Shown here: positions 1 to 63,158 of the stretch, piece by piece
Numbering within the stretch: position 1 is the first letter of the stretch
Layout: every line of letters begins with the position of its first letter
Assembly: GCA_030141605.1 (NCBI GenBank)
Contig: JAQGDQ010000748.1
Coordinates: 1-64,000, forward strand
Direction: 5' to 3'
Length of the DNA stretch: 64,000 nt
DNA from: Tubiluchus corallicola
Lineage: Eukaryota > Animalia > Priapulida
Program-made: the position numbers and the translations under genes
The notes under the pieces: generated by a model
The model's database searches: none
Seen by the model: the letters and a program-made list of their open reading frames with translations, nothing else
What the model was told of the DNA's origin: nothing

Positions 1-771
1 CTATATACAATGGAAAGTGACTCCTTAATTAATGCTATCCAAAGATTTGTTTGTCGAAGAGGCGAACTTAAGATGCTGCGATCCGATTGTGGCACTAATT
101 TAACTGGAGCAGATCGTGAACTGAAGAAATCGATCGAGCAGTGGAACAATGAGGACATTTCCAAGGCATTACAAAAAAAGGGAATCGAATGGCGATTTAA
201 TGCTCCTCAGTCTCCACACACTGGAGGAGTTTGGGAGCGGCTGATAAAGAGTGTAAAACGAACACTTACCTTTATCATGGACAAGCACACCATAGATGAT
301 GAAGCATTACACACATATTTTTGTCAGGTTGAGAATATCCTGAATAGTCGTCCGATTTCTGTAGTTTCAGAAGACATTCGCGATTGCGAACCTCTGACTC
401 CTAATCACTTGCTGTTGCTGCGCAATGGTCCTACTCTACCACCTGGAAAATTCACCGACTGTGATGGGTACACAAGAAGATGGCGCCACATTCAACATAT
501 GGCCAACATATTTTGGCAAAGGTGGAAGAAGGAATATATAGTTATGCTCCAGCAAAGGTCTAAATGGAACAGAGCCAAGAAAAACATCCAAGAAGGTGAC
601 ATCGTCCTAATTAAAGACATCCAGACTCCGTGAAGCGGCTGGGCTCTAGGCAGAGTAATACTAGCCAGTCCAGAAGAAGATGGTTTGGTGCGGTTTGCAA
701 CATTGAAGACAGCTTCTGGCATTCTAAGATGACATATTAATCAATTATGTTTAATTGAAGGACACATGTAA
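1..771 (+). pseudogene. BEL/Pao LTR retrotransposon (family 1) pol C-terminus: integrase core and C-terminal domain, with two premature stops
   Basis: ORF 10-633 has BEL integrase motifs (RSDCGTN, WRFNAPQSPHTGGVWERLI, LNSRP, PLTPNHLLL, FWQRWKKEY). The frame continues past TGA 631-633 (SGWALGRV...DGLVR) and TGA 730-732 to TAA 769-771. Confidence 0.92.
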
Positions 772-827
772 TGTCTGTTGTAAACTCAATTATTCTGGTA
801 AATGCTCCTGTAATTAAAGTCGCATTT

Positions 828-837
828 AAGGGGGCGG
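828..837 (+). other. Polypurine tract of BEL family 1
   Basis: AAGGGGGCGG lies directly before the TGTGA LTR start. Confidence 0.8.
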
Positions 838-1247
838 TGTGAAGGATTTTAGGTTGTACTTCAGTGTTCTTTCATTCTGTAAACCCCCCTATACTGTCCT
901 TTTTAACTGCATTCATATATGTATGTCTTGACTTGGCTTCTTTCTGTCATGCTCTACTGACAGAGCTAGTTTACCTGGTCTGTTGGCAGTCTGTTCTTGG
1001 CTAAGAGAGTTGTTGTTGTTGTTGTTGTTTGTCTCAGTTAAACCATTTATTTGTCAAGAGTAGTAGAGCCATGATGTAAGTTTATTTTGATTATTCAGTC
1101 TCACTTTATTATTAATTTCTTTGTTTCCTTTTTGGCTCAAATTAGTTTGTCATATTTTGTTATGATTTGTTTTGCAGATAAAACGTAATAAAGCTACTCA
1201 AACATGAATTTTTGACTTTGGGCATCATGAAGTAGTAGTCTCTCACA
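838..1247 (+). mobile_element. 3' LTR of BEL family 1 (about 410 bp)
   Basis: Follows the PPT; TGTGA...TCACA inverted termini; Inr-like TCAGTT at 1034-1039; AATAAA at 1187-1192. The partner LTR is outside the window, so the right end is inferred. Confidence 0.75.
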
Positions 1248-1869
1248 GTGAACATAACATACCTTTGTCAAGTTTCTTTTTGTCATCAGTGCCTCTTCCA
1301 GCCTTGCTTCAATATCTTATTAGCAAAAGTGAAATTAGTAGCTCAATAATTTTCAGCAAGGGTGAACAACGTGTGACGTAAACATCATAATAGCTAAGTA
1401 ATCATTATGGCAAGTGGGGAACACAACAGCAAATGATGGACCAAGCATGCAAATTATGCAATAATTTTGCAATGAAAAAGCGTCTCTTTTAGTCTGGACA
1501 CTTTGCCATCATGGCAGACTTTAATCTCGTTGTATTATATAAATGAATATTATAAGAATGGCCTGTCGCATCTGCCTGCATTAAATATTTGTTTGTCGCG
1601 GCATGCAAAATGCATCATTTGTATAATGTATGAGCTATGCATAATGTTAGTTTTGTGGTGGCAGGCATGGCTTCATTTCACGACATTTTAATTTAACGTC
1701 ATATTTTATTGGAAAGCATTGGCATATAAAGTGTGAATGTACTATATTTTCTGTTATACTGAGCAGTAATTTATTTTGTCACTAATAAAATAACAATAAA
1801 TCTGTTTTATAGGTTCAGTGTTTCTGATGATACTTGTGATATGGTATGAACTGTAACTAAACCAAGACG

Positions 1870-3123
1870 ATGGCTGCCTACTTGTTTTGTTTGACCACAG
1901 GAGGTGGTGTGCCACTTTTTTCACGTATTGTGGGTGATGTTAAATCTCTGCCATTTGCTATAATAGGAACACTTAATGGAGTACACATGTTCGCAAATTC
2001 ACATGATATCAAACTTCTGGCTACACGTACTAAAGGCGCTAAGATTGCCTGGAAAGTTTTCAATAGCAGTATTACGCTGATTTTAGTAACAAATGACAAC
2101 GGGACTTCAGATTCATTTATGCAGCAAATACTTGAATTTGTATTTAATGCGATGGTTTTACTAATTGGACTAGATGACCTTATTAATATAAAAAATGTTG
2201 AACGATTAAAGCGCGAATTGAGATGCTGTTATCAACTTTTTGACTGTTTGCTTGAGCATGACAACCGGGAAGAGTTTGGTGATGTTGTTGTTGCAGCTGA
2301 TATAATGTTAAGTAATAGTAACAGTGTTTTCAAAGAAATTTTGGACAGTTTTGTCGATGCAGCTGATTCCACTTATGGTTGTATAATGGTGCATGGCAAA
2401 GTTGTGGCAGCAACTAAAAAGTGGTGGGAGTTAACTGGTATCGAACTTGTGCTCATTTCTTTGCTAATTTCAACCCTACCTCAAGCTTCATCTCGTGATA
2501 TACCTGTGTTCTTGCCACAAGGAAGCCCGACTGTGCCACACAGACTTTGTACATTGCAACTTACTCCAGGGGTACAGATTTGTATTCTTTGTGGACCTGT
2601 ACCTTCGTTGGCACAGTTAACTAATCGCATTGCAAAGTACTGGCAATCAGCTTTAGACTTGCTACGAGATTGTGCAATAGTATATCCTAGAAATTTTCCT
2701 CATAGTATTGCTGTGGATCATAACATACTTGGATTCATTTTAGTAAACATGAACTCAAAGCAGTGTTTGTGTTCTGTTCAAATAAGGCAAGAGAACACTC
2801 GCAGAGAGGGATTTACAATGAGTTACAATCGAAGGAGGGCTATTTTACGTGCTTTTTATATGTCCACAGTTGGTCATATATTTGAACTGGTATCACAATC
2901 TGATAGTCAAAAAACGCTTCCTAGTGATGATATACATGAACGTCTTCTACATAGACCAAAAGAGGCTTACCAGTTATGTGATACACACAGTTGTTATGCT
3001 ATTCAAACTCACTTGTATAGAATTTTCATCTTGTATAATAAAAGGATTCCTCTCTATGCAACTGGCCCCGTTGCAAAGCATACTATAATTGCTTTAACAA
3101 AGGATAAAAATATCAGAATATAA
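1870..3123 (+). CDS. FUZ: Protein fuzzy homolog (planar cell polarity effector, CPLANE longin-domain protein), 417 aa
   Basis: Recognisable Fuzzy motifs GVPLF, LPF.IIGTLNGVHMF, NVERLKRELR, GKVVAATKKWW, RDIPVFLPQGSPTVPHRL, ILCGP. A splice acceptor tttatag ends at 1812, so a 5' UTR intron is likely. Confidence 0.93.
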   Translation: MAAYLFCLTTGGGVPLFSRIVGDVKSLPFAIIGTLNGVHMFANSHDIKLLATRTKGAKIAWKVFNSSITLILVTNDNGTSDSFMQQILEFVFNAMVLLIGLDDLINIKNVERLKRELRCCYQLFDCLLEHDNREEFGDVVVAADIMLSNSNSVFKEILDSFVDAADSTYGCIMVHGKVVAATKKWWELTGIELVLISLLISTLPQASSRDIPVFLPQGSPTVPHRLCTLQLTPGVQICILCGPVPSLAQLTNRIAKYWQSALDLLRDCAIVYPRNFPHSIAVDHNILGFILVNMNSKQCLCSVQIRQENTRREGFTMSYNRRRAILRAFYMSTVGHIFELVSQSDSQKTLPSDDIHERLLHRPKEAYQLCDTHSCYAIQTHLYRIFILYNKRIPLYATGPVAKHTIIALTKDKNIRI

Positions 3124-4168: not shown

Positions 4169-5955
4169 CATGGGCGGATACAGGTTTTAGAACAACGGTG
4201 GGCCCAACAGAAAAGCAGTTAGGGAGTCTGAGGGAGCGGTGCAAGCTCCCCTGCGAGGTCAACGTGGACAACAAACATTTTACTGCATTTTAGACCACAT
4301 TTCTGCCTTCTAGAAGCCATTTTCTCAAGGAAGCTCACTAGATTACAACAGGTGTCATCTCATCTTTGACTCAAAATAACATACCAGTATATTGATATAC
4401 ACTATACACATACATAATATACATAACCGTCATCTGTTTTCTTGTGATATATTATTTATACAGATATAAGGCAGCTTCAGGGTTTAGCAAATCGTTCTAA
4501 TGCTTATAATTCAAAGAAAATATTAATTTGGTGTGTTGTAACTGCTACTGTGAAAGGAGAGCCCACCCCTTGGCCCCACTTGCTACTAATTTTAACACTC
4601 GTCTTTTCGCTGATGATAAAAGTCTCTTCCTCACATCTACTAACCTTTCAACTTTACAACATCGCACCAACAAGGAACTAAAAAAGATTGATGACTGGAT
4701 GAAAGCAAATAAATTAACTGTTAATTACACTAAAACCAAGTATATGTTAATCAGTAGGAACTTTTCACAACAAGACTCTTCCACTTTCGAACTCAAAATT
4801 GGTGACATAATTTTAACACAAAGTAGTAGTATAAAATACCTTGGGTTGCATATTGACAACAATATGAAGTGGTCTACCCATATTTCCTCTACAGCAACAA
4901 AACAGCTGGCATTTTTGCAAAGTTAAGACATTTTATTAATTTGCCTGTTTTGAAAATGATCTACCATGCATTAGTCTATCCGTACCTCCAATACTGTGTG
5001 TTGTCATGGTGGCAAACAAAAAATACTTATTTCAACCACTAATAACAGTTCAGAATAAAATAGTTAAATACATGACATTCGCCAATTACAGAGACCATGC
5101 AACACCATCGTACATACACCTTAGTTTATTGAAAATACAAGATATTTATAATCTTGAATTATTTAAATTCATGTATAAGTATAATAACCGGCAGTTGCCT
5201 GAATTATATACTAACTACTTTACTTTACCTTAATCAAAATGTTCACTCTCACTATACTAGGTCTTCCAGTATGGGGGACACTATTTTCAAACACGATTTA
5301 ACACAGCGTATGGCTTAAATACCATACAGCACAGTGGAGTTATATTGTGGAATAGTGTACCCAATACAATCATTTCCTCTCCTTCTTTACAAATAGCCAC
5401 TAAACAATATAAGATATTTTTACTTAGTAAATATTCATTGGCATAGAAAACCAGAGGTTTTTTCTCTTTTTGTGCACGTGTGTCTTTTTGCACTAATGTT
5501 TTTCTTTTACTAATAGGTACCATTACGACCTTTGTTACTTTATTAGTAAAAGGTATAAATCAATTTAAATGAAATTATTCATTCATCGCAGCCTATATCA
5601 AAATCGTAATTACATATTATGTTTCCTTGCTTTTATTACATCATTTACTTTATTTCAAAATTATTTCAATATTTATATCAAAATCGTAATTACATATTAT
5701 GTTTTCCCTATGTTTCCTGCTATTATTACATCATTTACTTTATTACATCAATTTCATTAAGTCATCTACAAAAGCACGCATAACTTTAATAATTTTTTCA
5801 TTTTCATTTAAGTAAGGTGAGTGTGTTAATGACCGTATGGTCGTACACTCACCTCACACTACTCAAATCATTTTATTTATTGTTTATTTGTGTACAACAT
5901 TGTATTTTGACGTGTGAAAAATAAATTCATAGTTCACTCTCTAAATCCGCTGATG
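4169..5955. mobile_element. Degenerate TIR MITE (CATGGGCGGATAC...AATCCGCTGATG) interrupted by a LINE
   Basis: Imperfect inverted ends at 4169-4184 and 5940-5955; GC-rich subterminal sequence at 4200-4260 and 4560-4580; no clean TSD. Confidence 0.45.
4581..5937 (+). mobile_element. 5'-truncated, frameshifted L2/CR1-group LINE (RT C-terminal half and 3' UTR)
   Basis: RLFADD, W..ANKL.VNY.KTKYM and IKYLGLHID.N.KW.THI motifs, continuing in other frames to G.ILWNS.P; 3' stem-loop GGTGAGTGT...ACACTCACC at about 5816-5853; AATAAA near 5920. Confidence 0.8.
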
Positions 5956-6871: not shown

Positions 6872-7647
6872 GGCTGATGCTGTTTCATAAGTTGACACAA
6901 GCCGATCTTCATTTTGTTCTGACAAAACTGAAAATTGTAAAGGTTTCCCCGCGTTTTCTATACTTTTCATTTTTCTCAATAATAAATGCTGTTGTTATTT
7001 TAATTGTTCTTACCGATAATTTAAGTGCAGTATGGAGTGTAAATCGACTTTAGCAATGTCTATTAACTTGCATTTGTTGAGTTTTTTAGCCGCTTATTGT
7101 GCAGTAAGACCTATCTCCTGGGCCTACCGCCCAAAAGTCATTAATTACTTTTTCTCTTTTAATTTTCTAATTTAGTTACGTTCGTTATTTTGGATTTTAA
7201 GTTTTTTTCTGCTTACGTAAAATGATCTACTAATAGTATAATTGGGTACTGTTATTTGGCCTGTATAGTTTTTTGAGACAATAAACCTGAATAAGTAATG
7301 AGTATTACTGTAATTTGTAAATCATCATCATCATATTCCCATGATGTCTATTGTAGACATTGGGCAGGCAAAACTCTAAAAGAAAAGAAATCTGCCCTCA
7401 AGACAGGTAAACACAGCAGCAATTCAGGAATAAATCCAGGCCTGTCATGAGAACGGGAATTAAAAATTACCCTTTACGTCATGAGTTGTTTGAACTTGTT
7501 GTCAGGCAACCACAGTACGGTTACATTATCCACATAAGGCTATAAGATTAAAACGAATAACTATTTCTTTATAAGTGAATATTATACTTGGTATTCTTAA
7601 TTATCTGCTGTGAATTAGCCATGCTCTGTTGCCTATTGTTGTAACTA

Positions 7648-8479
7648 CAATAGTCGCCACTTAATAGACTCACTGGTAATAGACTCAATCGCTTAATTGA
7701 CTCAAAAATGCCTGGAATGGGCTGCTTCTATTCAAATATACATAAAAACTATCGATAATTGACTCAAATAACTTCGCTTAATTGACTCAATATTTTTCCT
7801 TCACATACTTAAAGTAAGACATTTGTATGTGCCCAAACAGTCTTTCTTACTTTCATGTCATCTTTACTTCCCTTTTGTGCATTATATATGTAGAAACAAT
7901 CATGTTAAGTACTGTTTTGTTTGGAAGCAGGTACGTTTATCATACGCTAATAGGCTAGCGTAGCGGTTTTGCTTTAAATCTGTTACCCGCTCGCCCACTG
8001 TTACCCAAAGAATTTCTGGAAGCTAAACATTTAATCACTTGCCTAGCGGTTTCCTCTTGATGCTCTAGTTACAAATCACGCTTTCAGGCTTAATGAGTTG
8101 ATACTCAAAGCTGTACAGTACATTTACTGGCTATGTCATGGAGCAATGTAAGTGAGCAGACGATTCAGAACTGTTTTAGTCATGCCCAATTCAGACTTGT
8201 GTGATTTAGAAAAGTGTACTTATTTACAAAAGTATATTTATTGTTAATTCACTTATACAAATTAATATTTTAAAATATTTTTTCTATTTTTAACTGTACA
8301 AAGGAATTTAGGCATTACTTCATTTCTAAACTTGACTAAAAGCCTTTGCAAGTGCATAGTAAGCTGATGACTCATACTTCTGTAGCAGTAATACTATACC
8401 CATCGGTTAATAGGTTCAATCAGTTAATTGGATCAAAACACGTCGGTTCCGAAGTGAGTCTATTAAGCGGCGACTACTG
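7648..8479 (+). mobile_element. Tc1/mariner (pogo/Tigger-like) MITE, family A, copy 1
   Basis: TIR CAATAGTCGCCACTTAATAGACTCAC / GTGAGTCTATTAAGCGGCGACTACTG, TA on both sides, subterminal TTAAT(A/T)GACTC repeats; homologous copies at 54.5-55.5, 57.6 and 63.2 kb. Confidence 0.9.
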
Positions 8480-8651
8480 TATAACATGCTCTTTTGCCTA
8501 ATGTTACTATAACATTTAAACATTATGTGGCTTCCATTTAAAACGAATCAATTAAATTGTTTCAGATGTAACAGCCAGCCAGTATTGTTTAAGTTTTTAT
8601 TCCTGGATTATTCTCAAATTCTGCACAGCTTTTTTTAGAATTAAGATTTAT

Positions 8652-9993: not shown

Positions 9994-10698
9994 TGTAGAA
10001 AACTGGCTATTTGTTTTACAGATTTTATTTTCATTTTCCTCTCATTGTAAAAAAGAAGAAGGTGAAAACTGCAATAGAACAAGAAAAAAAGAATATCAAC
10101 AAAAATAAAGCAACAGTAAATGTGCGAGTAAATGAGAAACAAGCGTTAGCAAATTAACAACAAGCACACTGAAGCAGAAGGTGATTCAAAATTAAACCGT
10201 TACATATGGCATTACAAAACAAACGCAAAAAATTGCTAACAAACAAACTTCCCAGCATATTCACAAATCAGCACGCACATGCACACACGTGCATGCCTAC
10301 ACAAAAACACGCGCATACGCATGCACTTTAAACAGTTGCAAAAAATCAATAATTAGGCAATGGCTAGAGATGAAAAGAATTATTATCAAATAAACACCAA
10401 CAGGAACTATTAAGCAAACAAATAAACTTACAAACGTTTGAGGATCTGTATAACAAATTTCAAGCCAATCTTCAGAAATCACAAAGAGACATACTGGTTC
10501 TACAACAGTGGCCTACTGAACTCACAACTACTATACTACTAAAACAGGATTTTTTCCTATTCTAAGGCTATCTAACCACTCAATACAAGAGCGGCCAAGC
10601 ATGTCAAACAAACTCTACAGGTAATGCAAAATGAATAATGTCACTCTAGAATTAATACACCTGGCTTCACTGTACCCAAGCTAGCCTGAAAGATAACA
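9994..10698 (-). repeat. 3' LTR of BEL family 2
   Basis: Direct repeat of 15993-16697; about 7 substitutions and no indels by manual comparison; adjacent to the PPT. Confidence 0.97.
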
Positions 10699-10776: not shown

Positions 10777-13700
10777 CTAAGCATCCTTCAAAGCAGCTTC
10801 CAACAGCTCCAGTTTTGTGATCGGACGAACCAACTCTGATGTTCGGGTCTTCACCTTGACAGTTCGCACCAAGCCGTCCCTGCCCTTCATGACATCACTG
10901 ATCAGAGCTAATGGCCATAAGCACCTCGGAGTGTTTTCATCTAACACCAAAACTAGATCACCAGGCTTCAAATTTTCTTTCAAGTCCATCCATTTTCCTC
11001 TCCGTTGAAGCTCAGGCAAGTAGGCCCTCACCCACTTGCGCCAGAATTGATCAGCTAAATTCTGTACATATCTCCAGCGTCGGCGATAAAAATCGTCTGA
11101 ATCAAATTTGCCTGGTGGCAAAGTAGGTCCTTCACGAAGGAGAAGAATATGATTAGGTGTCAATGGTTTGGAGTCACGAGGAACATCACTCAACTTTGTG
11201 ATTGGCCTGCCATTCAGTATAGACTCTACTGCGGCTTTAGATAACAAGGCAGCTAAAAATTCGACGCGTGCTGCGTATCATTCTCTCCCAGTGACCACCC
11301 ATATGTGAGGCTCCAGGAGGATTAAAAATGCCAATCAATCTCCCGCTTCACTGCATATGATTGAATATCCTCTTCGCTCAAGTCTTTCATACTTCGCTTG
11401 AGCTCTGACTTGCCACCAACAAAATTGGTACCATTGTCGCAGACAACCTTTTCTGGCAAACCTCTGCGTGCAGCGAATCTTCGAAAGCTGTTAAGGAAGG
11501 ACTCTGTTTCCAGACTGTTGAGCTTCTCAATGTGCACCGCTCTAGTGGTAAAACAGGTATACAGACATCCATATCTCTTGACCACTGATCTGTTTAGCTT
11601 CACCTGAAAAGGACCGAACACATCGATGCCGACAGTGGTGAATGGTGGTTTGTCAGACTGAATTCTCTCTGGTGGCAAATCTGCCATGCACTGTATACAA
11701 GGCCTAGCATACAGTTTCCTGCAAGTCACACACAGCCGGATTATCTTGTTAACCATAGCTCTCCCTTTGATAATCCAGTACTTCTTCCTGATGTGATTTA
11801 AGACCCACTCTGTGGCCAGTTGTGCAAAGCTATGAGTATCTCGGATAATCGCTGAAGCTACTGGATGACCATACGGTATTATACATGGAGGCACAATGTC
11901 CGCATTAGACTGGCTTATTCTACCGTGTAAGCAAATGATGCCATTCTCATCCATGAAAGGAGCAAGCGGTTTAATTGAACTTGATTTATTAACACTGTCA
12001 CCTGATAATAACTGTTGATACTCTTTAGCAAACACCTGTGATTGCACCGACTTTATTATTATTTTCTCTGCATGATCAATCTCCTGGACAGATAGTCGTC
12101 CTTGACAAGCTGTGCTTCGTTTTTTAAGAACATTAATCAAGCGATGCCACCATGCCACAGCTCTCTTCATGCGGTACCAACTTGAGTAGTGATTAGCAAT
12201 CTTGAGTATCGGGTCTGTAAAGGTACTGCCATCAGCCTGATCTCCAGAAACTCCAGTAATATGACTATAGATATCAGTAAGCTTTCTTGGACCATTGTAT
12301 TTCTTGACCACTGGATCTGCCTCTGGTAGGCTACTAGAATCGATTACTTCTAGGCTCCATTCACTCTTGTGCATCTACAGGAAACTTGGACCCTGGAACC
12401 ATTTCTGAACATCAAGCCTATTTACAACCTGGCCTCTAGAAAGTACATCTGCTGGGTTCTTTCTACTCCCAATGTAATGCCAATGATCTGGTTGTGACAG
12501 CTGGCGTATAGTGCTGATCCGATTGCCAACAAAAACATGAAATCTCCTGCTGTCATTTGCTATATACTTCAGCACTATCTCAGAGTCGCACCAGAAGTGT
12601 GAACCGTCAATCTTAATGTCCAGCTCTTTGCGTAGCAATGCATCCACTTTTACTGACAGAACTGCCGCCTGTAGCTCCAGGCGAGGAATTGTACACTGTT
12701 TTAGAGGTGCTACTTTGCTCTTGCTCATGACCAACTCTGTAAAAATAGCCCCTGCTTTGTTGATACATCGTATGTATGAGCAACTGCCATAAGCAAGCTG
12801 GCTGGCATCTGAGAAGTGGTGCAGCTCGATGACAGCATCATAGAACTCCGCAGGTTTTATACACCTAGGTCTCCGCAACTGACTTATACCTTCAAGCGAA
12901 AATAGCCATGTTCTCCATTGATAGTCAAGATCAGATGGGACAACTTCATCCCAAGACAGCCTATGTCGAGTTGCCTCCTGGAACAACAACTTTCCTGTTA
13001 AAACCAAAGGCCCAATTAGACCTAGAGGATCAAATATGGACGACACTATACTCAACATCTTCCTTCTGGAAATATTATCAGTTTGTAACAGTTTCTGGTC
13101 AATCACAAAGTAGAACTCATCTGACATGATACTCCATTTAACACCCAACACCCTTCCAGATGCTTCTGTTCCAAAATCTTTGACTTCCTTTGCTCGCTTA
13201 TGCTGTGGTATTTCGCAAAGCAACTCACTATCATTGACAACAAAAGCAGTTAAGTTGAAACCAGACCTCATCAAAACTTTTGGCACATCATGTATAACTG
13301 TGCGTGCTTCTTCAAGTGTGGCGGCTGATCTGAGACAGTCATCAACGTAGAATGACCTCATGACAATGTCCTTTATGACGGAGTCCACATGTTCGTACAT
13401 GACCGCACGTTGCAGAGCATAAGTGGAACTGGCTGCACACCAGATGCCACCAAATAAATGTGAAGTCATACGATAATGCACTACTACGTCACCATTCTTG
13501 TACCACAAGAAACGAAGTGCATCTCTGTCTTTCAGTGGTTTACGTACTTGATTGTACATTGCCTCTATATCAGCTTGAACCGCATAGGGATGCTGCCTGA
13601 AACGAAGAAGAACATGTAAAAGCTTATTGATGAGATCTGGACCTTGCTTGCATCGCTCATTCAAGGACCTTCCGTGAAATTTACTGGCACAGTTGAATAC

Positions 13701-15974
13701 TACTCTAAGCTTGCCTGGCTTCTTCTCTGTTATAACATCATGATGAGGCAAGTACCATATTCTTTCTGCGCTAAAAATGTCCTCTGCAGGCACGGGTTCT
13801 GCGTAACCATTCTCAAGAAGCTTGGTAATCTCATCATCATACCGCTGGAAAAGGTTTCTCTTATCGAGTCTCTTGACAAGTGACTTTAGGCACGCCTTTG
13901 CTACCACAAAATTATTTGGAAGTGGTTCATTTCTATCCTTCCATGGAATGGGTATCTCAAAGTGGCTATCCACCATGCAGCATTCTTCATCCCACATATC
14001 TACTACGGATTTGTCTTCTTGTGACCATGATGTATCATCTATGCCCTCATTTTCAATGTCCCAGATCTTCTGAACTTCCTCTTCAATTGATACGAGGGTA
14101 ACAAAATGAGAAATAGCTCTGTGACTGGCTTTAGAAGGAGCCGTGCTGCCGTTCAAACACCAACCAAACATTGTCCGCACAGCAAAGGGTTCTCCTCTCT
14201 TGCCTTTCCTGACATCCAAGGGAACAAGTGCTTCTGCATTATCTTGCCCAATCAATATGTCAGCGCCAGAACTCTGAAGATGCTTGCCAACAGGAAGTAC
14301 AATGTCGGAAAGATGTTTATACTTGCTGGTGTCCACTCCTTCACACTGGGCTGGTATTTTATCAACAACATAGACTCTTGACATACTGAGCGACTCTCCG
14401 GCACTAGACGAAATAGTAAGGCTAACCACTTCAGAAGATTTAATAGATGATCTATTCAGTGTCCTCAGTTGATAATCCTCCTTGCTGCCAGTTATTCCAA
14501 GCTGTCTAACCAACTTTCGAGAACAAAATGAACTGGTTGAACATGTGTCTAGAAGTGCTAGTGCTTGGCATGCATTATTGACTACTACCTGAACCACTGG
14601 CATACAAGTATTACCACGGGTAGAAGTACCGGCATTAGACACCATAACATCAGCACCCTCTGTAGTACTGGGCTCATCTACATGAATGTACATGGTATGT
14701 TTCTTGCCACATCCGCGTACCGAACAAACAGATTTCTTCCCACACCTCTCTGTCGTATGAGATGACAACAAACAGTTGTGGCATAACTTGAACCTCTGAA
14801 CAACGCCAAGTCTATCGTGAATATTCATCTTCTTGAATTGCTCACAGTGCCACAAGCGATGATGTTCACTGCAAAGAACACATGGTGGTTCTGGTTTAGC
14901 ATATGACTGCAATCTAGGATACCGCATTGGTGTAGGGTGTCCTTTGTTAGACCTGACACCATCCACAGCTGAAACAAAATTGGATGACCGTGTTGCACGT
15001 CTCTCATTTGAGTTACTCTGTTTCGTCATACTAAACTGGCCATAAACTGGATCATTGATATCTGCTGCAACATCTTTAACAAACTCCACCAGAGACATGA
15101 AACCTGGATACGCCCCAGTGTTCTTTTTCACCTCCAGCGCATGCTTCTTCCACTTGATTTGGATGTATGGTTGTAATCTTTGGACAATCTCTAAAATGAT
15201 GGTTTGAGAATCAACTTCCTGCAACTGATGTAATTGGCTCAAAATAACAACTGCATTACTCATTTCATCTGCTAGCTGCTGCACCTCTTGTGGAGATTTT
15301 ACTGGTTTACCATGCCTCATTTGCCTGACCAATTGCTCAGTCACAAGGTGTGAATTGCCAAACCTCTCTTCCAAAATTTCAATTGCCTTTCCATACCCCC
15401 TGTCTCCACCAATCAGCTGACACCCTCTAATGGCTTCCTTGGCTGGCCCATCAGTATACTGCATAAGCCTGGACAACTTGAGATAACTGTCAGCACAAAT
15501 ACAATCAACATTATGCTCAAATGCTTTAATGAACTGATGGTACTGAAGTGGATCTCCTTTAAAAGTCTGTAACTCAACTTTTGGCATGTTAAGCAAACTC
15601 AGCAACTCACCCCTGGTAATGTCGTCAGCACCAAATCCTGGACCAGCCCAACTGGCCTTCTTTACTGGTGACCCTACTGGAGACTTCTGTTTCACATCTG
15701 TAGTATACTGCTTTGCTAAATTCAGAACTGTGATGTAGTCTTCCTGCACCTTGTAGAAATAAGCATCACTGGTTTCCAAGTCATCCTCAGTCTCCAAAAT
15801 CTGATGATAAGAATCATGTGCTTTGGTGAACTCCTTGAAGATGCCCTTCAGTCTTTCAACTCTTTCAGCTAATTTTCCTGTATCATCTTCTGCTAGTAAC
15901 TGCTTCACCTGATTGACATCTTTAGTGACTGCCCTCTTGGCCTTTGACCTCGCATTCTTCAACTCAGCAGTCAT
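10777..15974 (-). pseudogene. BEL gag-pol polyprotein, disrupted
   Basis: ATG at 15974; gag (TFKGDPLQY) with three Cys/His knuckles; protease ALLDTCS; RT FYVDD; RNase H LHHFSDASQLAYG; integrase IDVFGP, CDNGTNF, PLTPNH. Lesions: TAG at 12377-12375, apparent +1 T frameshifts near 11325 and 11258, and a short deletion before AVESILNGRP. Confidence 0.93.
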
Positions 15975-15992
15975 GATGAAACGTTTTTTCAC

Positions 15993-16697
15993 TGTAGAAA
16001 ACTGGCTATTTGTTTTACAGATTTTATTTTCATTTTCCACTCATTGTAAAAAAGAAGAAGGTGAAAACTGCAATAGAACAAGAAAAAAAGAATATCAACA
16101 AAAATAAAGCAACAGTAAATGTGCGAGTAAATGAGAAACAAGCGTTAGCAAATTAACAACAAGCACACTGAAGCAGAAGATGATTCAAAATTAAACCATT
16201 ACATATGGCATTACAAAACAAACGCAAAAATTTGCTAACAAACAAACTTCCCAGCATATTCACAAATCAGCACGCACATGCACACACGTGCATGCCTACA
16301 CAAAAACACGCGCATACGCATGCACTTTAAACAGTTGCAAAAAATCAATAGTTAGGCAATGGCTAGAGATGAAAAGAATTATTATCAAATAAACACCAAC
16401 AGGAACTATTAAGCAAACAAATAAACTTACAAACGTTTGAGGATCTGTATAACAAATTTCAAGCCAATCTTCAGAAGTCACAAAGAGACATACTGGTTCT
16501 ACAACAGTGGCCTACTGAACTCACAACTACTATACTACTAAAACAGGATTTTTTCCTATTCTAAGGCTATCTAACCACTCAATACAAGAGCGGCCAAGCA
16601 TGTCAAACAAACTCTACAGGTAATGCAAAATGAATAAAGTCACTCTAGAATTAATACACCTGGCTTCACTGTACCCAAGCTAGCCTGAAAGATAACA
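15993..16697 (-). repeat. 5' LTR of BEL family 2
   Basis: Direct repeat of 9994-10698; AATAAA at 16028-16023; followed by GTGAAAAAACGTTTCATC and then the gag ATG. Confidence 0.97.
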
Positions 16698-18081
16698 GTA
16701 TTCTTCATTATGTTGATACCTTTGACGTGATCGTGAATTTCTCTAAAAATTATGCAACTCATAAATTATTCGTTCACACCCGACTGACTCCATTTTCAAC
16801 AGTGGTGCAATTTACTCAACATTTTGGTTATTGTGCTTCTAAATACGGATCTATCACATTTTAGCAGTTAGTATTCTTTATGCATAATATCCTTTTTACT
16901 TTCTATCTAAAGTTTAATTTATCTTTAATACAAAAAAGTGTGGTTAAAGAACATGTCAAAATTTCTTTCATTTTTTTGTACGTAGTTTTGTGCACATTTT
17001 GCATAGTAATAACACTATTTTCTAGATGACAATAAATAAAGATCAACAAAGCAAGCTGAACATGAACAAAAACAAAAACTAAATCTGAATTAAGAAACTT
17101 TACTGTGTTTTGTGTTTCAGCAAAACTTATAACATTCATTGCAACTTGCACTGTACTGATTCTAAGACAAAAAACTTAAATTGCATCAAGTTACAAGATT
17201 CAGATACATCTGGTATTGAAAATTAAGCGAATTAAATATTCGGATTTGATTTGATTTTGAAAACTTCTAAAATGTGAGATTTGAATTCAATTTGATTATG
17301 GAAATGAAGCAAAATGAGCTTCGGATTCTATTTGGTTTAGGAAATTTAAGCTTCGTCCTACATCTAATAGCTAGCAGGATTTCAAGACGATGTTGACCAA
17401 ATTGTTCAAAGCTTAAAATGGTCTCGCTGATTTGTTCTCAAAGCAAAAAACATTGTAAAATGAAATTTTAATAAGGAAATTTAGTTCTCTTAGGAAATGT
17501 TTGCTTACTATGCAGACAGTTAAGTAATAAGACTACAAATCACACATAATAAAACTGCTAGGTTAGGTGCATACATAATACAAAGGAACGTTTGCTATAT
17601 TGAATATAAGTGTACTTTTCGGGGAATTGATCACAACCTGAATTACAGAAGAGTGCCATATAAATGCATTGTAGTAAAAGCATGCCAATGCTTAACGATC
17701 CTTATAAATTATACATAAATAACAACAGCTGTTTTATTTGTATAGTTATAGTTCAAAACATATTGAAATTGTTACATGGGATCAAAAGATGATTTATTAA
17801 CTTGTATTACTCTTGAGAATGGCTGCCAATAGATAACTAACATATTGAGTTTGTCTAAAGGTAATTAATCTCTTGACCCAGTTTAACAGTTTCAGTAAAT
17901 AATAATGGCAAATTAGGTTTAAAGTTGCATGTTGTATTGAGATCTGCAAAGAAAAATCGTATAATAATTTCGGCTTCTTGAATATGAAATGTAATCACTT
18001 TATTGTATGCACTTTTTGTACTATGCTTTTGAACGAGTTTGCTTATTTTCTGCTTTTTCCAGAAAATTGGCTTTTGCAAAA

Positions 18082-20331
18082 ATGGAGCATGTACAAATTA
18101 TTCACCAGTCTCTGGATGGTGTGCAGATGGTGCAACAGCAAATCGAGGGTGCACAGGTAATAGAACAACAAGTAGATGAGGGACAGATAGTGGAACAACA
18201 ACTTGATGATGGTCAGGTAATAGAGCAACAGCAGATGCTTGAACAACAGCTGGAAAATGAGCAGATGGTTCAAGATCAGTTGAATCATTCCCATGTGAGC
18301 AGTGGGCAAGTTGTAGAGCAGCAGTTAGATGGTGGTCAAATAATGACACAGCAGTTGGAAGGAGGGCACATGCAGGTACATGTTGTAGATGAAAATGGGC
18401 AGATTGTTGAGCAACAGATGAATGGCGGACCTGTGCATATTGTGGAGCGTCAGTTGGATGGAACTCATATAGTAAAACAGTTAGAAGATGGTCAAATTAT
18501 AGAACAACCTCTGCATGGAGTGCAGATAGTTGAACAGCAGTTAGATGGTCGACAAACTGTTGTGCAAACTATCACTGAACCCGCAGAAGCAAGCCGCATG
18601 GGTCAGGCAAACGAGGCTTTGGGTCAAGCCTATGAACAGTCTTCACAGCCAGAACTGGAAACAGCTATACACACCATTAATTTTGACGTTGAAAATGGTA
18701 CAGTATTATCCACGGATGCAGTTCTCATTGACGGCTTGGTTCCTAATCATGAGATGCTGGTATGCTTTGAATGCATGGCATGTGAGTCAAAGTTTGCAGA
18801 TGAAACTGAGTTCCTTTCGCACACACGAGCTGCTCATTGCTTAGTAACTTTAGTTGATCCAGAACAAGCTGCCTCGATGACAAATCGTGTTGGATTGCCA
18901 TTCCCTATTGAAAAGTGGAAACCAAAAACAGATTTTTTTGTACGTCCTGAAGGTGATGATGAAGACGAATACATTGTTGAGCGAAAACATGGTAACTTTT
19001 CTGTCAAGAGCCGGAAAAGAGCTTCTGATGCATTATCAGCTGGCGGTGCATCTAATTACGTTATTGAACGATTGCAGATGAGTGATATCATTGCAGCATT
19101 GAAGTCGTCTGGCAAAAAAACTGATAGTATTCCTTCTGTTAAATCTGTCGAGTTAGCTAAAGGCAAAAAACCTGTTCCAAGAAGATCAGCTGGTTCGAAG
19201 GGAATTACCATACCGAAATCAGCTCTGCGAGGGAAAGGTGATACCCGTGAATTTTCTCAAGAAGTTATTCTTGTTCCAATTGTAGGTGCTGATGGCAAAA
19301 ACCAAGATCCTGTTTTTCTTTTCAAGAATCCAAATGCACCTGTACCTGGATTCGTGCCAGCAGCAGATGAACCTATTATTGTTATGCAACAGGATTCGAA
19401 GAAGCAAACTCCAGCCCGCATAGTAGCAAGCAGAAGTGGTGATGCGACACAGGAAAGTAAGCCCAAAATGCAAATGTCAACCATTGGCACAATTGCATCT
19501 GCAAGCAGTGGAGCTGAGACTGGTGGAGGCACGAGCATTAATGCATCAGAAGACATCATTCAAGTTCCAGTCGTTTATACCCAAGCGGATCTTTCTTCAT
19601 CTGCTGCTGGTGAAGCCCAGAAGTTTGTTGTTCATGGAGATGGTGAAAATATGTCAGTTATAACACCACAGAAGAGTCAATCTCTGAAATCACCAAACAA
19701 AAGTCAGATCTCTGTATCACCAGTTAAACCAGTTAAAGTGTCTCCACCATTTCCTTCTATCAAAGTTTCTACATTAAAACCAGATGTTCAGACTGGAAAA
19801 CATTCAGGCATTCGAACTTTTACACTTCCTGTTAGTCAGTCGGGTAGTGACAGTGGTAGTGAAGGTTTATCGCCAGCTCGCGTGTCTGAATTGTTTCCTG
19901 GGAAATCATTTACCATCAAGCCGGAACCACTGGACATACCAACAGTTGTAATTGATTCACCATCAAGTAGAACTAGAGGAGTAAAACGCCGACGTCCACA
20001 GATATTTGAGATAAAACCAGTTAGATCTGAGGGTGGACAAGGTTATAGTATTTCTACTACTGAAGCTGCTACTGAAGAGCAGACAGGCGATGCAGAACCT
20101 AACATTAAACTGATGAAGTTAGCTGATACTGTTGTCTCTGCAGCACAGGATGAAAACACTGATATTCAGATGCAAGTTGCTGAGAAGCAAACTGATGACT
20201 TTGCTGAAGCTTTCCAAGAGGACGAAGCTGCATCAGCAGATACTGATAAAGGATCATATACTATAGGTCAAGTAGTTATTGGGGAGGAAGGGCAAATACC
20301 AATAACTACTGGACTGGGATCGCAAAGTTAA
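18082..20331 (+). CDS. Uncharacterised 749-aa protein: N-terminal Gln-rich 10-aa repeats, one C2H2 zinc finger, long low-complexity tail
   Basis: Long ORF; acceptor tttttccag ends at 18062 and the first ATG after it is 18082 (AAAATGG); C2H2 CMACESKFADETEFLSHTRAAH at 18772-18837; basic KRRRP motif. Confidence 0.8.
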   Translation: MEHVQIIHQSLDGVQMVQQQIEGAQVIEQQVDEGQIVEQQLDDGQVIEQQQMLEQQLENEQMVQDQLNHSHVSSGQVVEQQLDGGQIMTQQLEGGHMQVHVVDENGQIVEQQMNGGPVHIVERQLDGTHIVKQLEDGQIIEQPLHGVQIVEQQLDGRQTVVQTITEPAEASRMGQANEALGQAYEQSSQPELETAIHTINFDVENGTVLSTDAVLIDGLVPNHEMLVCFECMACESKFADETEFLSHTRAAHCLVTLVDPEQAASMTNRVGLPFPIEKWKPKTDFFVRPEGDDEDEYIVERKHGNFSVKSRKRASDALSAGGASNYVIERLQMSDIIAALKSSGKKTDSIPSVKSVELAKGKKPVPRRSAGSKGITIPKSALRGKGDTREFSQEVILVPIVGADGKNQDPVFLFKNPNAPVPGFVPAADEPIIVMQQDSKKQTPARIVASRSGDATQESKPKMQMSTIGTIASASSGAETGGGTSINASEDIIQVPVVYTQADLSSSAAGEAQKFVVHGDGENMSVITPQKSQSLKSPNKSQISVSPVKPVKVSPPFPSIKVSTLKPDVQTGKHSGIRTFTLPVSQSGSDSGSEGLSPARVSELFPGKSFTIKPEPLDIPTVVIDSPSSRTRGVKRRRPQIFEIKPVRSEGGQGYSISTTEAATEEQTGDAEPNIKLMKLADTVVSAAQDENTDIQMQVAEKQTDDFAEAFQEDEAASADTDKGSYTIGQVVIGEEGQIPITTGLGSQS

Positions 20332-31934: not shown

Positions 31935-33065
31935 GTGCGGTTTGTATTGAGCTAAACAAGTTTGTCCTGACGCAGTGATGAAATGTTTGTCTTTAAAATT
32001 ATTTTTAATAGACACGTTTTTGTTTATCTTTTCTGTAGTACAATTGATAATGCAGAGATCAACAATGAAACATTTCCAAGTTTTAACAAGTGATTACTGC
32101 ATACACGTGTGTACAAGGTGACCATAAAATATTAAGATCTTCCAGAGTAAATGATGTCAACAATGACCGAGTAATAAATCAATAGCCTACTATGTTAGTG
32201 TGTAAGACCCGTGCAAGTGCCTGGGCCGAGTATATTATACCTACCTGATATATATATATATATCTGTGTGTATATATATTCATGTTGAGGGCCCTCAATG
32301 CAATCCACGATAAAGCAGCCTGGCCTTTCATCGCGCATAATTGTTTGTAGTGCCTTTAACCCTAGGATGTCGCAGCCAGGAATTACAGTAATATTTGTTA
32401 AGTTTGTGAAGTAATGTCAAGATGCGAACATTCTCTGATGCGAAGTATCACAGTATGAGTGTTCATTCAGCCCAGCATATAATGAAGGATTATTTCTTTA
32501 CATATTCGTATTGTAGATGATTCTTTAGCGACATCTCCCAAAAACATATCATAAGTCTGCCCCAAAAACTTCACCTTAAAATCATCACCAAGTATATACG
32601 GTATGTGCTAAGATATCAGCTTACATTCAATAATCATTTCTTTTAGTTATTAATTTTTCTGATCGTTTTACATGTAATGTAGGCTGATAATGCAGAGAAC
32701 AGCTTTGAAGCATTCGTAATTTCAATACACGACTGTAAGCTAAGATACCAGCTTTCGTTCATTTGAAACCGCACAGTACTCTAAGTTGGATTTGTGAATG
32801 AGAATTATGTTAGTGTTTCATATGGTCCCGGAAACAGTTGCTTTATTGTATTGTCATTTAGTTCTACCTGTTTGCTATACATTATAATTGATAAAATTTT
32901 TAGTGTGATAATTAATTATTAGTATTATTTTAATCTTATATTTTTCTAATGGTTACTACTGTTTTTTAAGGTTCTGATTTCATTTAACATTGTCATTGTT
33001 GTTTTATTGTACGTAATTATGTGGATCTAATAAACTTAACTAATGACGTCATATTTTTTATGCAG

Positions 33066-35343
33066 GTATCGTACAACAATGGCAGATGGATACTATTCGT
33101 CAACGCCTGATTATCTAAGAGATTACCAGGCTGATTGGTTTGTGCCTACTCTTTCTCGACGAGAGAGGCAGGAACGAGCATTGCGTCGCCGTCTTGATAT
33201 GTTCGATGTTCAAAACTTATGGCGCCGAAGAAATGCTGCAACAACTGAAACGAGGCGGCGTGTGTACAGGTATCGCTTACGGTTGCGTCAAATGCAGAAT
33301 GCGCAACAAGGTTACCGGGACACCAGTCCGGAATTCTTCAGATCGAATCCAGCATGCACACATCGACTTGTTCCGTGGCTTAATCGCGAATTAGCAGTAT
33401 TGCTGTATAATGCTGAAACTCAAATAGCATTTGTACTTGAGCTAATCATGTCATTGATTGTACGATACGAGATTCTGAGTGAAGATATGTATCAGCATCT
33501 TGAACCATATTTACAAAGCGATACGAGACAGTTTCTATATGAATTCTACCATTTTGCTAGGTCACCTCTCGATATGATTGGATATGATCGAATTGTGGAT
33601 TATGAATTTGCCGGCCAGCGACACGAAATACCGGATGAACCACTATCTTCGGCAGCTACAGAAAGTTCACATCCAAATGAAGATCCAGGCATTGATATTA
33701 ATGACGAAGATATTGTTTTTTTGCCACGTGATCCTCGAATATCAATGCCGTCTAGTACTGCATTAAAAGATCGATCTGCTTTTACATCACTTGTTACCAC
33801 GAGGTCTTCCAGATACAGCCATAGTGGAAATACTCCTGAATTGCCTCTGAGTCCATTTCCCGAGGCATCCCTAAGTCCATTTTTGTATTTGAATTCACCA
33901 GTGCATTACCCCGCAAGACGTTCACATGCCAGGTCAAGGTGGCCAAGTTCGGTACCTGCTGCAAATCAAGCTCAAATGGAAGCTGATGCTGGGCAAATGC
34001 TAATTAACAGGGTTAAAAATTCTCTGAGTGACACTTCCAGCGATCCTGCAGGATTGCCATTGCCTCAAATAATTTCATTGTCTTCAGCTTCTGATGGCAG
34101 CGACATTGAATTTGTGGAAGAAGTTAAACCAAAGCGCAAGCGCACGCCTGAAGTAGTGCATATTTCTGATAGTGAGGATGACATTAATACAGATGAGCCG
34201 GGTCCTTCATGGAGGCACATGCCTGGCACACGTTGTGCAACCAGTAGTAGCAGTTTGTCTAGTGATTCAAGCTCACATGGTAGTTCTACTCTAAAAAAGT
34301 CTCCACCATTATCACCGTACTGGAACAGAAAGTTGCACAAACGTATTTGGTCTCCTGCAGGTTCTGATTACACTAGAGATGAGTCTGCATCAAATGAGGA
34401 TCTTTTGCTGAGAGATGCTACCACATTGCAGCATGAGGACAAATACAGTAAAAGCTCATCTAGTGATGCGGGCTCACCAAGTGGTTCGATGAAAAAAAAT
34501 CAAGGAAAAAAATCTAAAATGGCACGGTCATGGCCATTTTGGAAAAATGGCCCTGACAAAAAATCTTTGTCTCGGGCTAGTCCCACATTTAGTCCTGATT
34601 TGCTGACAGGTACTTCCAAGGGTATGTCAGCTTCACCTGAAGGTCCCTTTCATAAGAAGTCACCAGTACTTTGGAAAAGCAAATCACATTCTTTTGCTAA
34701 GCGCATTCTGTCACCAATATTTGATTCCGATTCTAATCATTCAGCTAAATTGCCTCAAAATCAACATTTAAGTGGTACTAAAATGGCTGTAGCAAATGAT
34801 TTTACTTCTGCTGAAATAGATTTCAGACTGCCTTCTCCACCAGGACTTGCCTCTTCTTCAGTGCGTTCGCAAGAAAATCACCCCATGTCTGACAGATCAC
34901 CAGTTTCTTCTTTTCCAGTTGATTTGGATTTCATTGGAGCAGTTGATTCAGACTTGGAAAAAAGTTCTGACAGTGAGTCGACTATTATAATGTCAAAGAC
35001 AAAGAGTAATAACTGTGTTAGTGCCGATGAGTCACCTAGAAGAACGAAATGTACCAGCAAAGATCTGGATGGGTACAAGAAGAGTAGTAAACGTGCACAC
35101 ATACACGAGAATAGCCTCCCTCTAAAGAAACGCCATAAGCACAGATCTTTCCGATCACGATCTAGGCATTCTTCATCTTCACCTGAACGAAGTCATTCTA
35201 AATCACGATTAAGTTCTGTCATTGTTTGTAAAGGAAATCCGCAATTGGATGAGTTTAGCGAGCGTTCCTCGCATCATAGAAGGCACAAAAAGAAAAGACG
35301 CTCAAAACACAAGAAGTCGAAGCATAGGGACATGACACACTAA
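33066..35343 (+). CDS. TOPORS: Topors terminal coding exon
   Basis: tgcag|G completes RRFRYRTT; Topors block SPEFFRSNPACTHRLVPWLNREL...FARSP; SIM-like DIEFVEEV and RTPEVVHISDSEDD; Ser/Arg/Lys/His-rich tail. Spliced total is 2673 nt (890 aa). Confidence 0.93.
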
Positions 35344-37474
35344 AAAACTAGATGATACTTTGTATATAAATGATTAGTTTTTATTTCTTTCTCCTTGGTT
35401 AGTGATATGTGTATACCTATATAAAATAATATAAAATTTATAATGACTTAAACACTTTCATTCGTATTATATAATTTACGTATTTTGTCATTCTTGCTTT
35501 TGTGCTTGACTAGCTGAATTAGCTTCCTATTTCTCTCTTTAACTATATTCCTAGTTATGCAGATTTTGTTGTATAACGGATCTATGAGTGGGTAATAATA
35601 TTTTCTGTTCATATCTTGATGGCTTATTATGCTGTACTATTATTCTTTTTGACAGTATTCAAATTTGAATTGCTTTGTAGACCCATGAAAAAACTGTATT
35701 TAGCACCTAATATTATTAACAGGACCATATTATGATGAATATGCATACGTGATAAATAATACCTTACTGAACTCAACTTTTCTTTGTGTGGTAACTGATT
35801 ATCATTGCTTAAGATACATTTTTTGACAGATGATTTCGATCAAATTCTATTAATAATGACCATTATTTTCCAATTTTATTTAATTTTTGAGCAAAACGAA
35901 AATTTGTTAAGCTTGCTGTTAATTAGGATGTTTGGTATAACAGCTGATTCTGATAAACATCAATTAAAGCAAAATACATGATTCGTAATTGTAGTTGTTT
36001 GCACTTTGTGTTTTACCATAAGAGTGTAACCATTTTAATAATCGACTCCACAATACTAAATATGTACCTTAATGTAGGAGCACGATTTTATTTAAAAAAA
36101 ACACAAGTTATTTACAGTAAGAACAATAATTACGATAATGATGTGCCATGAATGGAAAATAAGCTGCTTATTTACAAGTTGACTGTGAACATCATTAATA
36201 GTAAGGTGCATTATGCATAGCTAGAATATGTTAATCATTTTTACGATATTAATAGGTCTAGTAACTTAGTACATTATGTGTATGAAAGATTTAATATAAT
36301 TCTGCTCAGACATAATTGTCTTTTATTGCTGTTTCTGACCTTATATCCAGGAAAGCTTATTCAGTGGAGTGTATTTTTCTAACACTGTCTGATGCTTTAG
36401 AAGCGACTAGCTTGATATCACCATGCACTGTAGTCCAAGAAATTATTTATCACAGTAGCATAATAGCAGATAAAGTACTCCAGTCATGTTTCCAGGAGTT
36501 TTTCTGGCATATCACACCATTTTGAGAAATTAATATTTCAGAATTCTAACTAGTGCAGCCGTCTGTAGTATCTGCTATTTTGTTTACAGAAAAGATTTCC
36601 TGCGCTGGCATTTTATGAAAGCTTATTTTTAGAAAACGTAGACTACGTTTTTAGACTACGCTTTTACGTAGGACATTGTGCTTTGCCTAGTGTGCATTAA
36701 TTAAGCAACTGGGTAGAGTGTCATTCCATGCCTCAGGTAATAGGTTTGCATTCACTTCTGCTGTACTTTCTAGTAGTAATCCATTTCTATAACAAAAAGA
36801 ATCCATAATTGTTTATAGCTACTTCTAATATACACACCATTATAATTCTACCTTTGTTGAATTACCATAGTTAATATCTGCTAAATTTTTAACGTCCATA
36901 AAGAAATAAGCAAGGCAGTCCTGGAGTTTAGTACTTGCTTGACTTAAAAAATTATCCATACAAGTTTGTGTGTTCAACTCTTCGCAGCTTTTGAGCAAAC
37001 AAACTTCTATTATTTTTGTAACCAGTCAAGCTACGGCACTAAAGTCTTGGTCGTCTGTTGTCTAGGATTACTCATTTTCTACTAATTCCTGACATTGAAC
37101 TGCCCACTGACTATCCTATCAAAGTCCACATTTGATCCTGTAAATTACTTAATTTGGTTCAAGTTTGATTGCTTAGTTACTTAATTACACTACCCGATGT
37201 CATCAACTATCACATTAAAATCTGTTACGTATCTGGTACCGTGGTATAAGTTTCTTAAGTTTGGTTGCCAAGCTCCTAGTGTATTAGTATTTGAAATTCT
37301 CCTACAGTTTTGAACGTCCCACCCCAAATCTACCAACTGCCTAACTGACATCTGTTCCACAGCAGGTAATTTACGTTTACTTAACTGGTTAACTAACTGA
37401 GAAAAATCTCTGTGCTGTAAGTTTCTTGAATTTTATGTTGACTGGCTTCAGAATCTTCGTTATTGATGAAAAAT

Positions 37475-54315: not shown

Positions 54316-54544
54316 CTGAAATGAAAATTAAAGGAAAATTCAATCAAACACTACTCAAAAACTTAGCAATACATCACATTTCCAAATAACTGGGAATGAA
54401 AGAAATTTAGCAAACTGAAAGAATCAACCAAAACAGACTTTTGGTTTGAAACTGTGACAGGTACCAAAACATATAGAGTAGGTGCCATTTATTAGTCTTA
54501 CGGTTAATATATAGAATCAAATGACTAAATGTTTAGCTATCAAA

Positions 54545-55471: not shown

Positions 55472-55561
55472 TATCATGCACTGTTGTAGTTTTAAACATT
55501 TTTTTCGAAATTCAAGAATGATAGAAAGTCACCAAATGATTGAAATGCATTGATATCTTAC

Positions 55562-57516: not shown

Positions 57517-57604
57517 CTATTGTATTAATAAAATTATTTTAAAAAAAATAATGGCGTCATAAATTGCTTTGCAAATAACTGCAGAAAAATTCAGCTTTCT
57601 AATA

Positions 57605-63104: not shown

Positions 63105-63158
63105 CTGAAAAAATATATTTGATTTTAATAAACAAATGTCCAAATCTAATTTCAACTA

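Follow-up and report, generated by a model that had tools for sequence, protein, structure and literature searches.

LTR elements are defined in part by how their reverse transcription is primed, and BEL/Pao appear in the ICTV profile as tRNA-primed (PMC8742986). The window analysed here, a 64,000-nucleotide stretch of Tubiluchus corallicola DNA, contains the 3' end of one BEL/Pao element (family 1) and a complete element of another (family 2), and both carry intron-like splice signals in their LTRs. This raises the question of whether a spliced LTR transcript, rather than a tRNA, primes reverse transcription in these elements. The position and complementarity of the sequences described below lead us to consider, with good confidence, that the 3' LTR of family 1 carries an intron and that the spliced joint would pair directly behind the 5' LTR, serving as the primer in place of a tRNA. 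If this is true, a primer that exists only after splicing ties replication to the spliceosome, and the same intron must be handled differently at the two ends of one RNA. Sharp predictions follow from the model: each family should have an 11-nt leader, and an RNA should end at a named AC dinucleotide.

The family-1 element lies at the start of the window and comprises the following features.

1..633, plus strand: 3' part of family-1 BEL/Pao pol (end of the integrase core and DUF5641); in this copy a stop truncates the frame (Pfam DUF5641 E 1e-15, rve E 9e-4; open reading frame list).
828..837, plus strand: polypurine tract abutting the TG of the LTR (from sequence; a comparable G-rich tract precedes the 3' LTR in relatives).
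838..1247, plus strand: 3' LTR, 410 bp, TG...CA, multi-copy in the genome (from sequence and contig depth).
1034..1039, plus strand: Inr-like TCAGTT, candidate transcription start (from sequence only).
1072..1075, plus strand: exon-1 side of the predicted self-primer, 4 nt with up to 9 possible (by analogy with 24 curated families).
1076..1177, plus strand: LTR intron, 102 nt, GT..AG (exact join of 1075 to 1178 in contigs of runs X2 and X1).
1178..1184, plus strand: exon-2 side of the predicted self-primer, ATAAAAC, with a predicted cut behind the AC (from the AC/AT edge and the nt-7 position in the 24 families).
1187..1192, plus strand: AATAAA, likely poly(A) signal, the only one in the LTR.

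The pol fragment, whose integrase end and DUF5641 are the domains inside the window, is up to 54% identical to BEL loci, and in a quick integrase tree of window and metagenome elements family 1 forms a long branch of unsure position. The initial annotation of this DNA had proposed an intron in the LTR from the Inr-like TCAGTT at 1034, the donor CCATGAT/GTAAGT at 1076 and the acceptor TTTTGCAG ending at 1177, and all three motifs were found at these places. The donor consensus GT[AG]AG occurs once in the 410-nt LTR, at 1076. Rfam returned no matches in window positions 700-1400.

The contigs of four sequencing runs were mapped on window positions 600-1450; two of the runs, X2 and X1, represent one sample and are, by our guess, DNA. 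The junction 1075/1178, which had been suggested as the one to look for, is present in the X2 and X1 contigs. Positions 1076-1177 are absent, the missing segment has GT..AG ends, and the join is exact with no ambiguous bases. It was not listed among the contigs of run X4. Run X6, by guess RNA, gave no contigs on these positions, and a search for runs containing the sequence listed none of RNA; neither outcome speaks to expression, and X5 and X6 contain almost none of the sequence words sought. Depth at the join was 385.7 in X2, against 188.4 for the unique flank (approximately 2.0-fold), and 18 against 11.4 in X1 (approximately 1.6-fold). Over the whole LTR the contig depth is about two orders of magnitude above the unique flank, and over the internal region about 5-12 times the flank, although summed depth is not copy number. 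With the LTR about 100-fold over the flank and the join about 2-fold, the intron-less LTR is thus a small minority form. The same contigs contain a second joint, from 1097 to 1209, which skips 111 nt, has GT..AA ends and removes both the acceptor and the AATAAA. This is probably a plain deletion variant of the LTR, and deletions thus occur among the copies. A deletion that matches both predicted splice sites exactly is, we infer, best explained by splicing followed by reverse transcription, and the GT..AG intron at 1076-1177 looks real.

The leader with which the family-1 junction should pair is placed behind the 5' LTR, approximately 5-6 kb upstream of the window and hence outside the 64-kb stretch. 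Loose contig ends accumulate directly behind position 1247, the end of the LTR, but they are mixtures of many flanks (agreement about 0.45) and the family-1 leader is therefore not legible from them. The sequence GTGAAC... that follows 1247 in the window was considered as a leader, as it resembles the start of the family-2 leader, but it mismatches the predicted family-1 leader and runs into a Fuz-type gene, and we took it as flank. The gene in question is an uninterrupted 417-codon frame (1870-3123, plus strand) with all three Fuz/MON1/HPS1 longin domains (Pfam). It begins about 620 bp behind the family-1 LTR on the same strand, could be an intron-less Fuz-type gene or a retrocopy, and might be affected in its expression by the LTR.

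Family 2 is present as a complete element on the minus strand, with its leader in place.

15993..16697, minus strand: 5' LTR, 705 bp, with an intron at 16430-16068 (363 nt); the LTR pair has 7 mismatches and an AATAC target duplication.
15979..15992, minus strand: leader/PBS, complementary to the spliced LTR junction except for one unpaired base, with no TGG (from sequence).
12375..15974, minus strand: gag-pol open frame (Gag DUF1759, protease, RT/RNase H region; open reading frame list, Pfam).
9994..10698, minus strand: 3' LTR with the intron retained at 10431-10069 (from sequence).

The LTRs at 16697-15993 and 10698-9994 flank the complete element, in which Pfam identifies DUF1759, Asp_protease_2, Peptidase_A17, Integrase_H2C2 and DUF5641 in this order. 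The integrase part, downstream of the long frame, is broken by one stop and one frameshift. The leader is one A short of a perfect junction match (6 versus 7 A's), with 11 nt pairing perfectly from offset 3. Beyond their splice motifs the LTRs of the two families are dissimilar, as had been observed initially; the best BLASTN match is 13 nt long, over the donor, with an E value of 0.01. The shared geometry also held on recomputation, with acceptor-to-LTR-end distances of 70 nt in family 1 and 75 nt in family 2. Exon 2 opens with ATAAAAC in family 1 and TTTTCAC in family 2, both 7-mers ending in AC, and an AATAAA lies behind the acceptor in both (9 nt after it in family 1, at 1187, and 39 nt after it in family 2).

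Elsewhere in the window we noted a long array of 33-nt tandem repeats (37393-39394) that is open in several frames, matches no Pfam family above cut-off, and on the minus strand would encode an 11-residue repeat rich in Gly, Tyr, His, Asp and Lys. A non-coding repeat of about 0.9 kb, probably a non-autonomous DNA transposon, occurs in four copies in both orientations with 75-90% identity (7643-8480, 54544-55472, 57602-58563 and 63154-63998). There is also a fragment of a non-LTR-type reverse transcriptase (4510-4926, plus strand; RVT_1, E 8e-7), and three long single-exon host-gene frames lack Pfam matches (17995-20331, 33040-35343 and 55558-57201), the second of which may resemble the post-RING part of TOPORS.

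Examination of related elements shows how far the match between junction and leader extends beyond the window. Family 2 was aligned with 63 of 120 homologues, and this alignment yielded the best 80 of 529 BEL/Pao loci in metagenome contigs; no relatives were found in the viral contigs or prokaryote genome contigs searched. In a blind strict scan, strong donors and acceptors in the LTR regions were combined, and perfect reverse-complement matches spanning the resulting junction were sought in the 300 nt before gag. Of 81 elements, 42 were scored, near-duplicates included; upstream DNA was missing for 12 and a candidate junction for 27. Matches of 11-15 nt across the junction were found in 18 of the 42 loci, while the complement-only, reverse-only and direct controls each gave 0/42 at 11 nt or more. 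The remaining 24 loci, family 2 among them, scored 0. A relaxed version of the scan was discarded as a test: it was noisy (23/60 at 11 nt or more, versus 6, 4 and 12 in the controls, of which the direct control was inflated because of the LTR duplicate) and chose spurious junctions in L017, L023, L071 and L079.

An anchored test was restricted to 10 non-duplicate elements in which the LTR was complete and the end of the 5' LTR was fixed by the LTR pair; the set excludes contig-edge pairs, assembly overlaps and the duplicate L058, and two LTR slices start 5 nt late with their junctions unaffected. All 10 leaders, including that of family 2, pair with their own LTR over 10-15 nt, eight of them across the splice junction and two unbroken. 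In seven, the match is to a strong junction, covers 11-15 nt and lies at offsets of 2-4, and in each case none of 100 shuffled leaders reached the score. L041 matches a junction with a weak donor over 10 nt (0/40 shuffled leaders), and L017 and L047, which have no strong intron, match their LTR without a break over 10 nt (0/100 shuffled leaders). When leaders were paired with the LTRs of other elements, 10 nt was reached in 2/90 cross pairs in strong mode (the sisters L023 and L029), 6/90 with any GT..AG and 2/90 unbroken. Judged by sequence, the rule that a leader is the reverse complement of its own spliced LTR junction is strongly supported in the relatives.

This result bears on whether family 1 might be an exception, having a real intron but a leader with an ordinary tRNA site or unrelated sequence. 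Its leader sits outside the window, its branch is long and of unsure position, and the ICTV profile assigns an 18-nt tRNA-Arg/Gly site to the Belpaoviridae (PMC8742986), all of which would leave room for such a case. Against this, 10 of 10 independently bounded relatives are self-complementary, and family 1 has the modal layout of these relatives, with a GTAAGT donor, a 102-nt intron, an AC ending at nt 7 of exon 2 and an AATAAA behind it, and we therefore regard an exceptional leader as very improbable. The only A[CT][CG] in exon 2 of family 1 has its AC ending at nt 7; the same is true of 5% of 3,099 background YAG sites in the window.

The geometry of pairing was characterized in 24 curated families, which were chosen by their split match and partly picked by eye, so that the counts are not a rate. 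The split match covers 9-16 nt from the leader start, and the introns are 74-423 nt long. The paired segment begins 0-6 nt behind the LTR end, at the position of a PBS, and ends in AC in 22 of the families and AT in two; in 13 of the 24, the modal case, it ends 7 nt into exon 2. Its exon-1 share is 2-9 nt. In all 24 families, which were selected by match, pairing with the spliced junction gives a more stable duplex than pairing with either flank in its unspliced form. Of 552 cross pairs only 12 reach 10 nt, all inside four close relatives, and the set contains 22 distinct 11-nt leaders. In a set of 30 families with visible leaders, also partly picked by eye, all pair with their own LTR and a TGG near the leader start was observed once, in L041; this element has a weak donor, and its well-supported sister L031 shares the 7+3 geometry without the TGG. 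Inspection by eye revealed LTRs with apparently two donors or two introns in L031 (3100-3990), L057 (300-1100) and L079 (682-1077), and in L031 and L079 the primer junction takes the last donor. The spacers from PPT to TG and from LTR end to PBS are often similar (about 4/4, 3/3, 2/2, 2/3 and 0/0 in L048, L059, L079, L023/L024 and L047, respectively), resembling unprocessed cDNA ends, with L080 and L017 as misfits.

A duplex of this kind could instead be a regulatory fold, acting in packaging, gag translation or poly(A) suppression, with priming left to a host RNA, for example an internal fragment of a tRNA. The gag ATG is indeed often near: in 12 of the 24 families it follows the leader start by 13-48 nt. 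Copia lineages are known to prime with tRNA halves, according to the accessible part of PMC6317226. Yet the duplex starts 0-6 nt behind the LTR end, the place required for the end of a primer, and its AC/AT edge is conserved. The 22 different leaders also follow 22 different junctions, a pattern incompatible with a fixed host RNA. We consider the regulatory reading quite improbable. A second alternative retains the spliced junction as primer but has it supplied in trans by short spliced LTR transcripts, either from solo LTRs or as RNAs ending at the poly(A) site of the 5' LTR. With such a supply, one LTR copy would no longer have to be spliced while the other is kept. Supply in trans also agrees with the large excess of LTR over internal region in the contigs and with the AATAAA that the LTR carries just behind the junction. 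Each family's leader, however, matches its own LTR only, which cis pairing explains without extra parts, and the precedent Tf1 acts in cis as described in the accessible part of PMC10085805; supply in trans appears rather improbable, though the present data fit both modes. Self-priming in cis by the spliced junction is the reading that we prefer.

Applied to family 1, the rule yields a specific leader. The reverse complement of the spliced junction is GTTTTATATCATGGCTC, in agreement with the initial annotation, which had predicted that the internal region begins with this sequence, possibly with its ATG starting gag. The principle behind the prediction, a leader that starts with GT and is the reverse complement of the spliced junction, holds in the relatives, but its full length extending to ATCATG was an overreach. 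Because the exon-1 side contributes only 2-9 nt, and 4 nt or fewer in 11 of the 24 families, GTTTTATATCA (7+4) is well predicted and the full form is not; the longer form with the ATG requires 6 nt of exon 1, a length reached in 13/24. We thus expect, with reasonable confidence and from sequence considerations, that the family-1 leader is GTTTTATATCA, following a spacer of 0-5 nt from the 5' LTR end. A start of gag at the ATG of the leader is unlikely. In family 1 that ATG would be at offset 10 from the leader start. In 23 of the 24 families, the first ATG to open at least 100 codons is found at offsets of 13-433 (none was found in one), and it overlaps the paired segment in L080 only, by one base. 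The ATCATG common to the two families, once taken as a meaningful likeness, is probably a coincidence, as the family-2 copy falls outside its paired segment. Transcription from 1034 would put about 38 nt ahead of the paired segment; no Inr-like motif or TATA was found at a fixed distance from the donor in the 24 relatives, and 1034 is best regarded as a candidate start only.

The exact intron ends and, in the relatives, the complementarity of each leader to its own junction are observations; their position and pairing suggest how priming, cleavage, the start site and the RNA-DNA joint may be arranged. In the proposed mechanism, the start of transcription would lie ahead of the donor in the 5' LTR, and the intron near the cap would be spliced out. 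The new junction, comprising about 4 nt of exon 1 and 7 nt of exon 2, could then fold onto the PBS. A nuclease, probably the element's own RNase H as reported for Tf1, would cut behind the conserved AC to leave a 3'-OH, from which reverse transcriptase would copy U5 and the remainder of exon 2. The resulting strong-stop DNA would jump to the 3' R, carried by a short R between the AC cut and the poly(A) site. The intron copy in the 3' LTR would normally be kept in the transcript, so that both daughter LTRs inherit it. This asymmetry might plausibly stem from the cap-binding complex and exon definition, since the 5' donor lies close to the cap and the 3' donor closes a 5-kb exon. Because the primer is copied during plus-strand synthesis, every cycle may rewrite the PBS with the junction as template; PBS and junction would then stay matched while the LTRs diverge. 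Occasional splicing of the 3' LTR copy would produce an intron-less LTR with an unbroken, Tf1-like primer, and would yield both the intron-less LTR seen in contigs and families with unbroken primers.

Six families (L017, L047, L049, L064, L075 and L076) have an unbroken self-complementary PBS of 10-13 nt with no intron in the primer; Tf1-like sites of this type were noted in L017, L045-L047, L049, L062/L064, L075 and L076. On a quick unrooted RT/RNase H tree of 30 families, the unbroken state needs 5 changes, at least 4 of them forced by well-supported branches. Of the sisters L013 and L017, the former has the intron and the latter lacks it; their LTRs are too diverged to align. The changes on the tree fit repeated intron loss via a spliced 3' LTR. 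Taken as a whole, we lean somewhat towards a widespread animal BEL/Pao lineage that uses host splicing as a replication checkpoint, the 5' intron being spliced to make the primer and the 3' intron kept for inheritance. The PBS would be recopied in each cycle from the spliced primer, so that unrelated LTRs keep matching their PBS, and occasional 3' splicing would repeatedly have given intron-less, Tf1-like self-primers.

Self-priming of Tf1 is reportedly the subject of work by Levin in 1995, and a role for RNase H in release of the Tf1 self-primer is said to have been described by Levin in 1996. According to the accessible parts of PMC10085805 and PMC4600332, Tf1, Tf2, Tj1 and the Tf1/sushi group have no tRNA site; their PBS is complementary to their own LTR RNA, which is cut to provide a 3'-OH. 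The elements studied here resemble this group in that the PBS is complementary to the LTR RNA in 10 of 10 independently bounded relatives, family 2 included, while the family-1 PBS is a prediction. They are not members of it, since Tf1/sushi elements are Ty3/gypsy chromoviruses and ours are Pao-type by Pfam with no chromodomain match. The Tf1 primer lies at the 5' end of the RNA, whereas here it would be split by a spliceosomal intron in most families and is probably internal to the RNA. Of the three-duplex pretzel of Tf1, the exon-1-side extension alone was examined, and further pairing into exon 1 beats tail shuffles at the 5% level in only 7 of the 24 families; for release by RNase H, the conserved AC/AT edge is what points to it here.

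The ICTV profile of the Belpaoviridae (Semotivirus) describes an 18-nt PBS for tRNA-Arg or tRNA-Gly and tRNA priming, in a group whose replication is poorly understood (PMC8742986). Our elements agree with the profile in the order Gag-PR-RT-RH-IN, the Pao peptidase A17, DUF1759, DUF5641, LTRs of 0.2-1.2 kb, a PPT and a 5-bp target duplication (PMC8742986), and both families have TG..CA LTRs, of 410 bp and 705 bp, each with a PPT. No TGG near the leader start was found in family 2 and 28 of 29 related families, the family-1 leader being predicted. The leader departs from the description in the ICTV profile, not from the protein-based family BEL/Pao. Within the superfamily, the Sailor lineage (Sinbad, Sparrow and Surcouf) is common in marine invertebrates according to the accessible part of PMC6238403; the named top matches of family 2 likewise come from marine invertebrates (sea cucumber, sea star and sea spider), and our trees hold window and metagenome elements only. 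The main text of the Sinbad paper mentions no PBS or tRNA (PMC554778), that of a BEL/Pao survey no primer, PBS, tRNA, intron or word beginning with splic- (PMC3118150), and that of the mollusc survey no primer or intron (PMC6238403). The accessible parts of PMC8220671 and PMC3601003 added nothing on a splice-made primer, and no description of one for a retrotransposon was found in the literature searched, a body that stops short of most subscription papers, Repbase, GyDB and supplementary PBS tables.

Self-priming has also been predicted from PBS-LTR complementarity for the plant TAR copia elements and Tcn1, which belong to other superfamilies and for which the accessible part of the source mentions no intron in the primer (PMC6317226). 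If our reading is true, self-priming extends to a third superfamily, which would also explain why PBS finders based on tRNAs miss these elements. The mechanism is most likely akin to the self-priming of Tf1, with the primer assembled by splicing.
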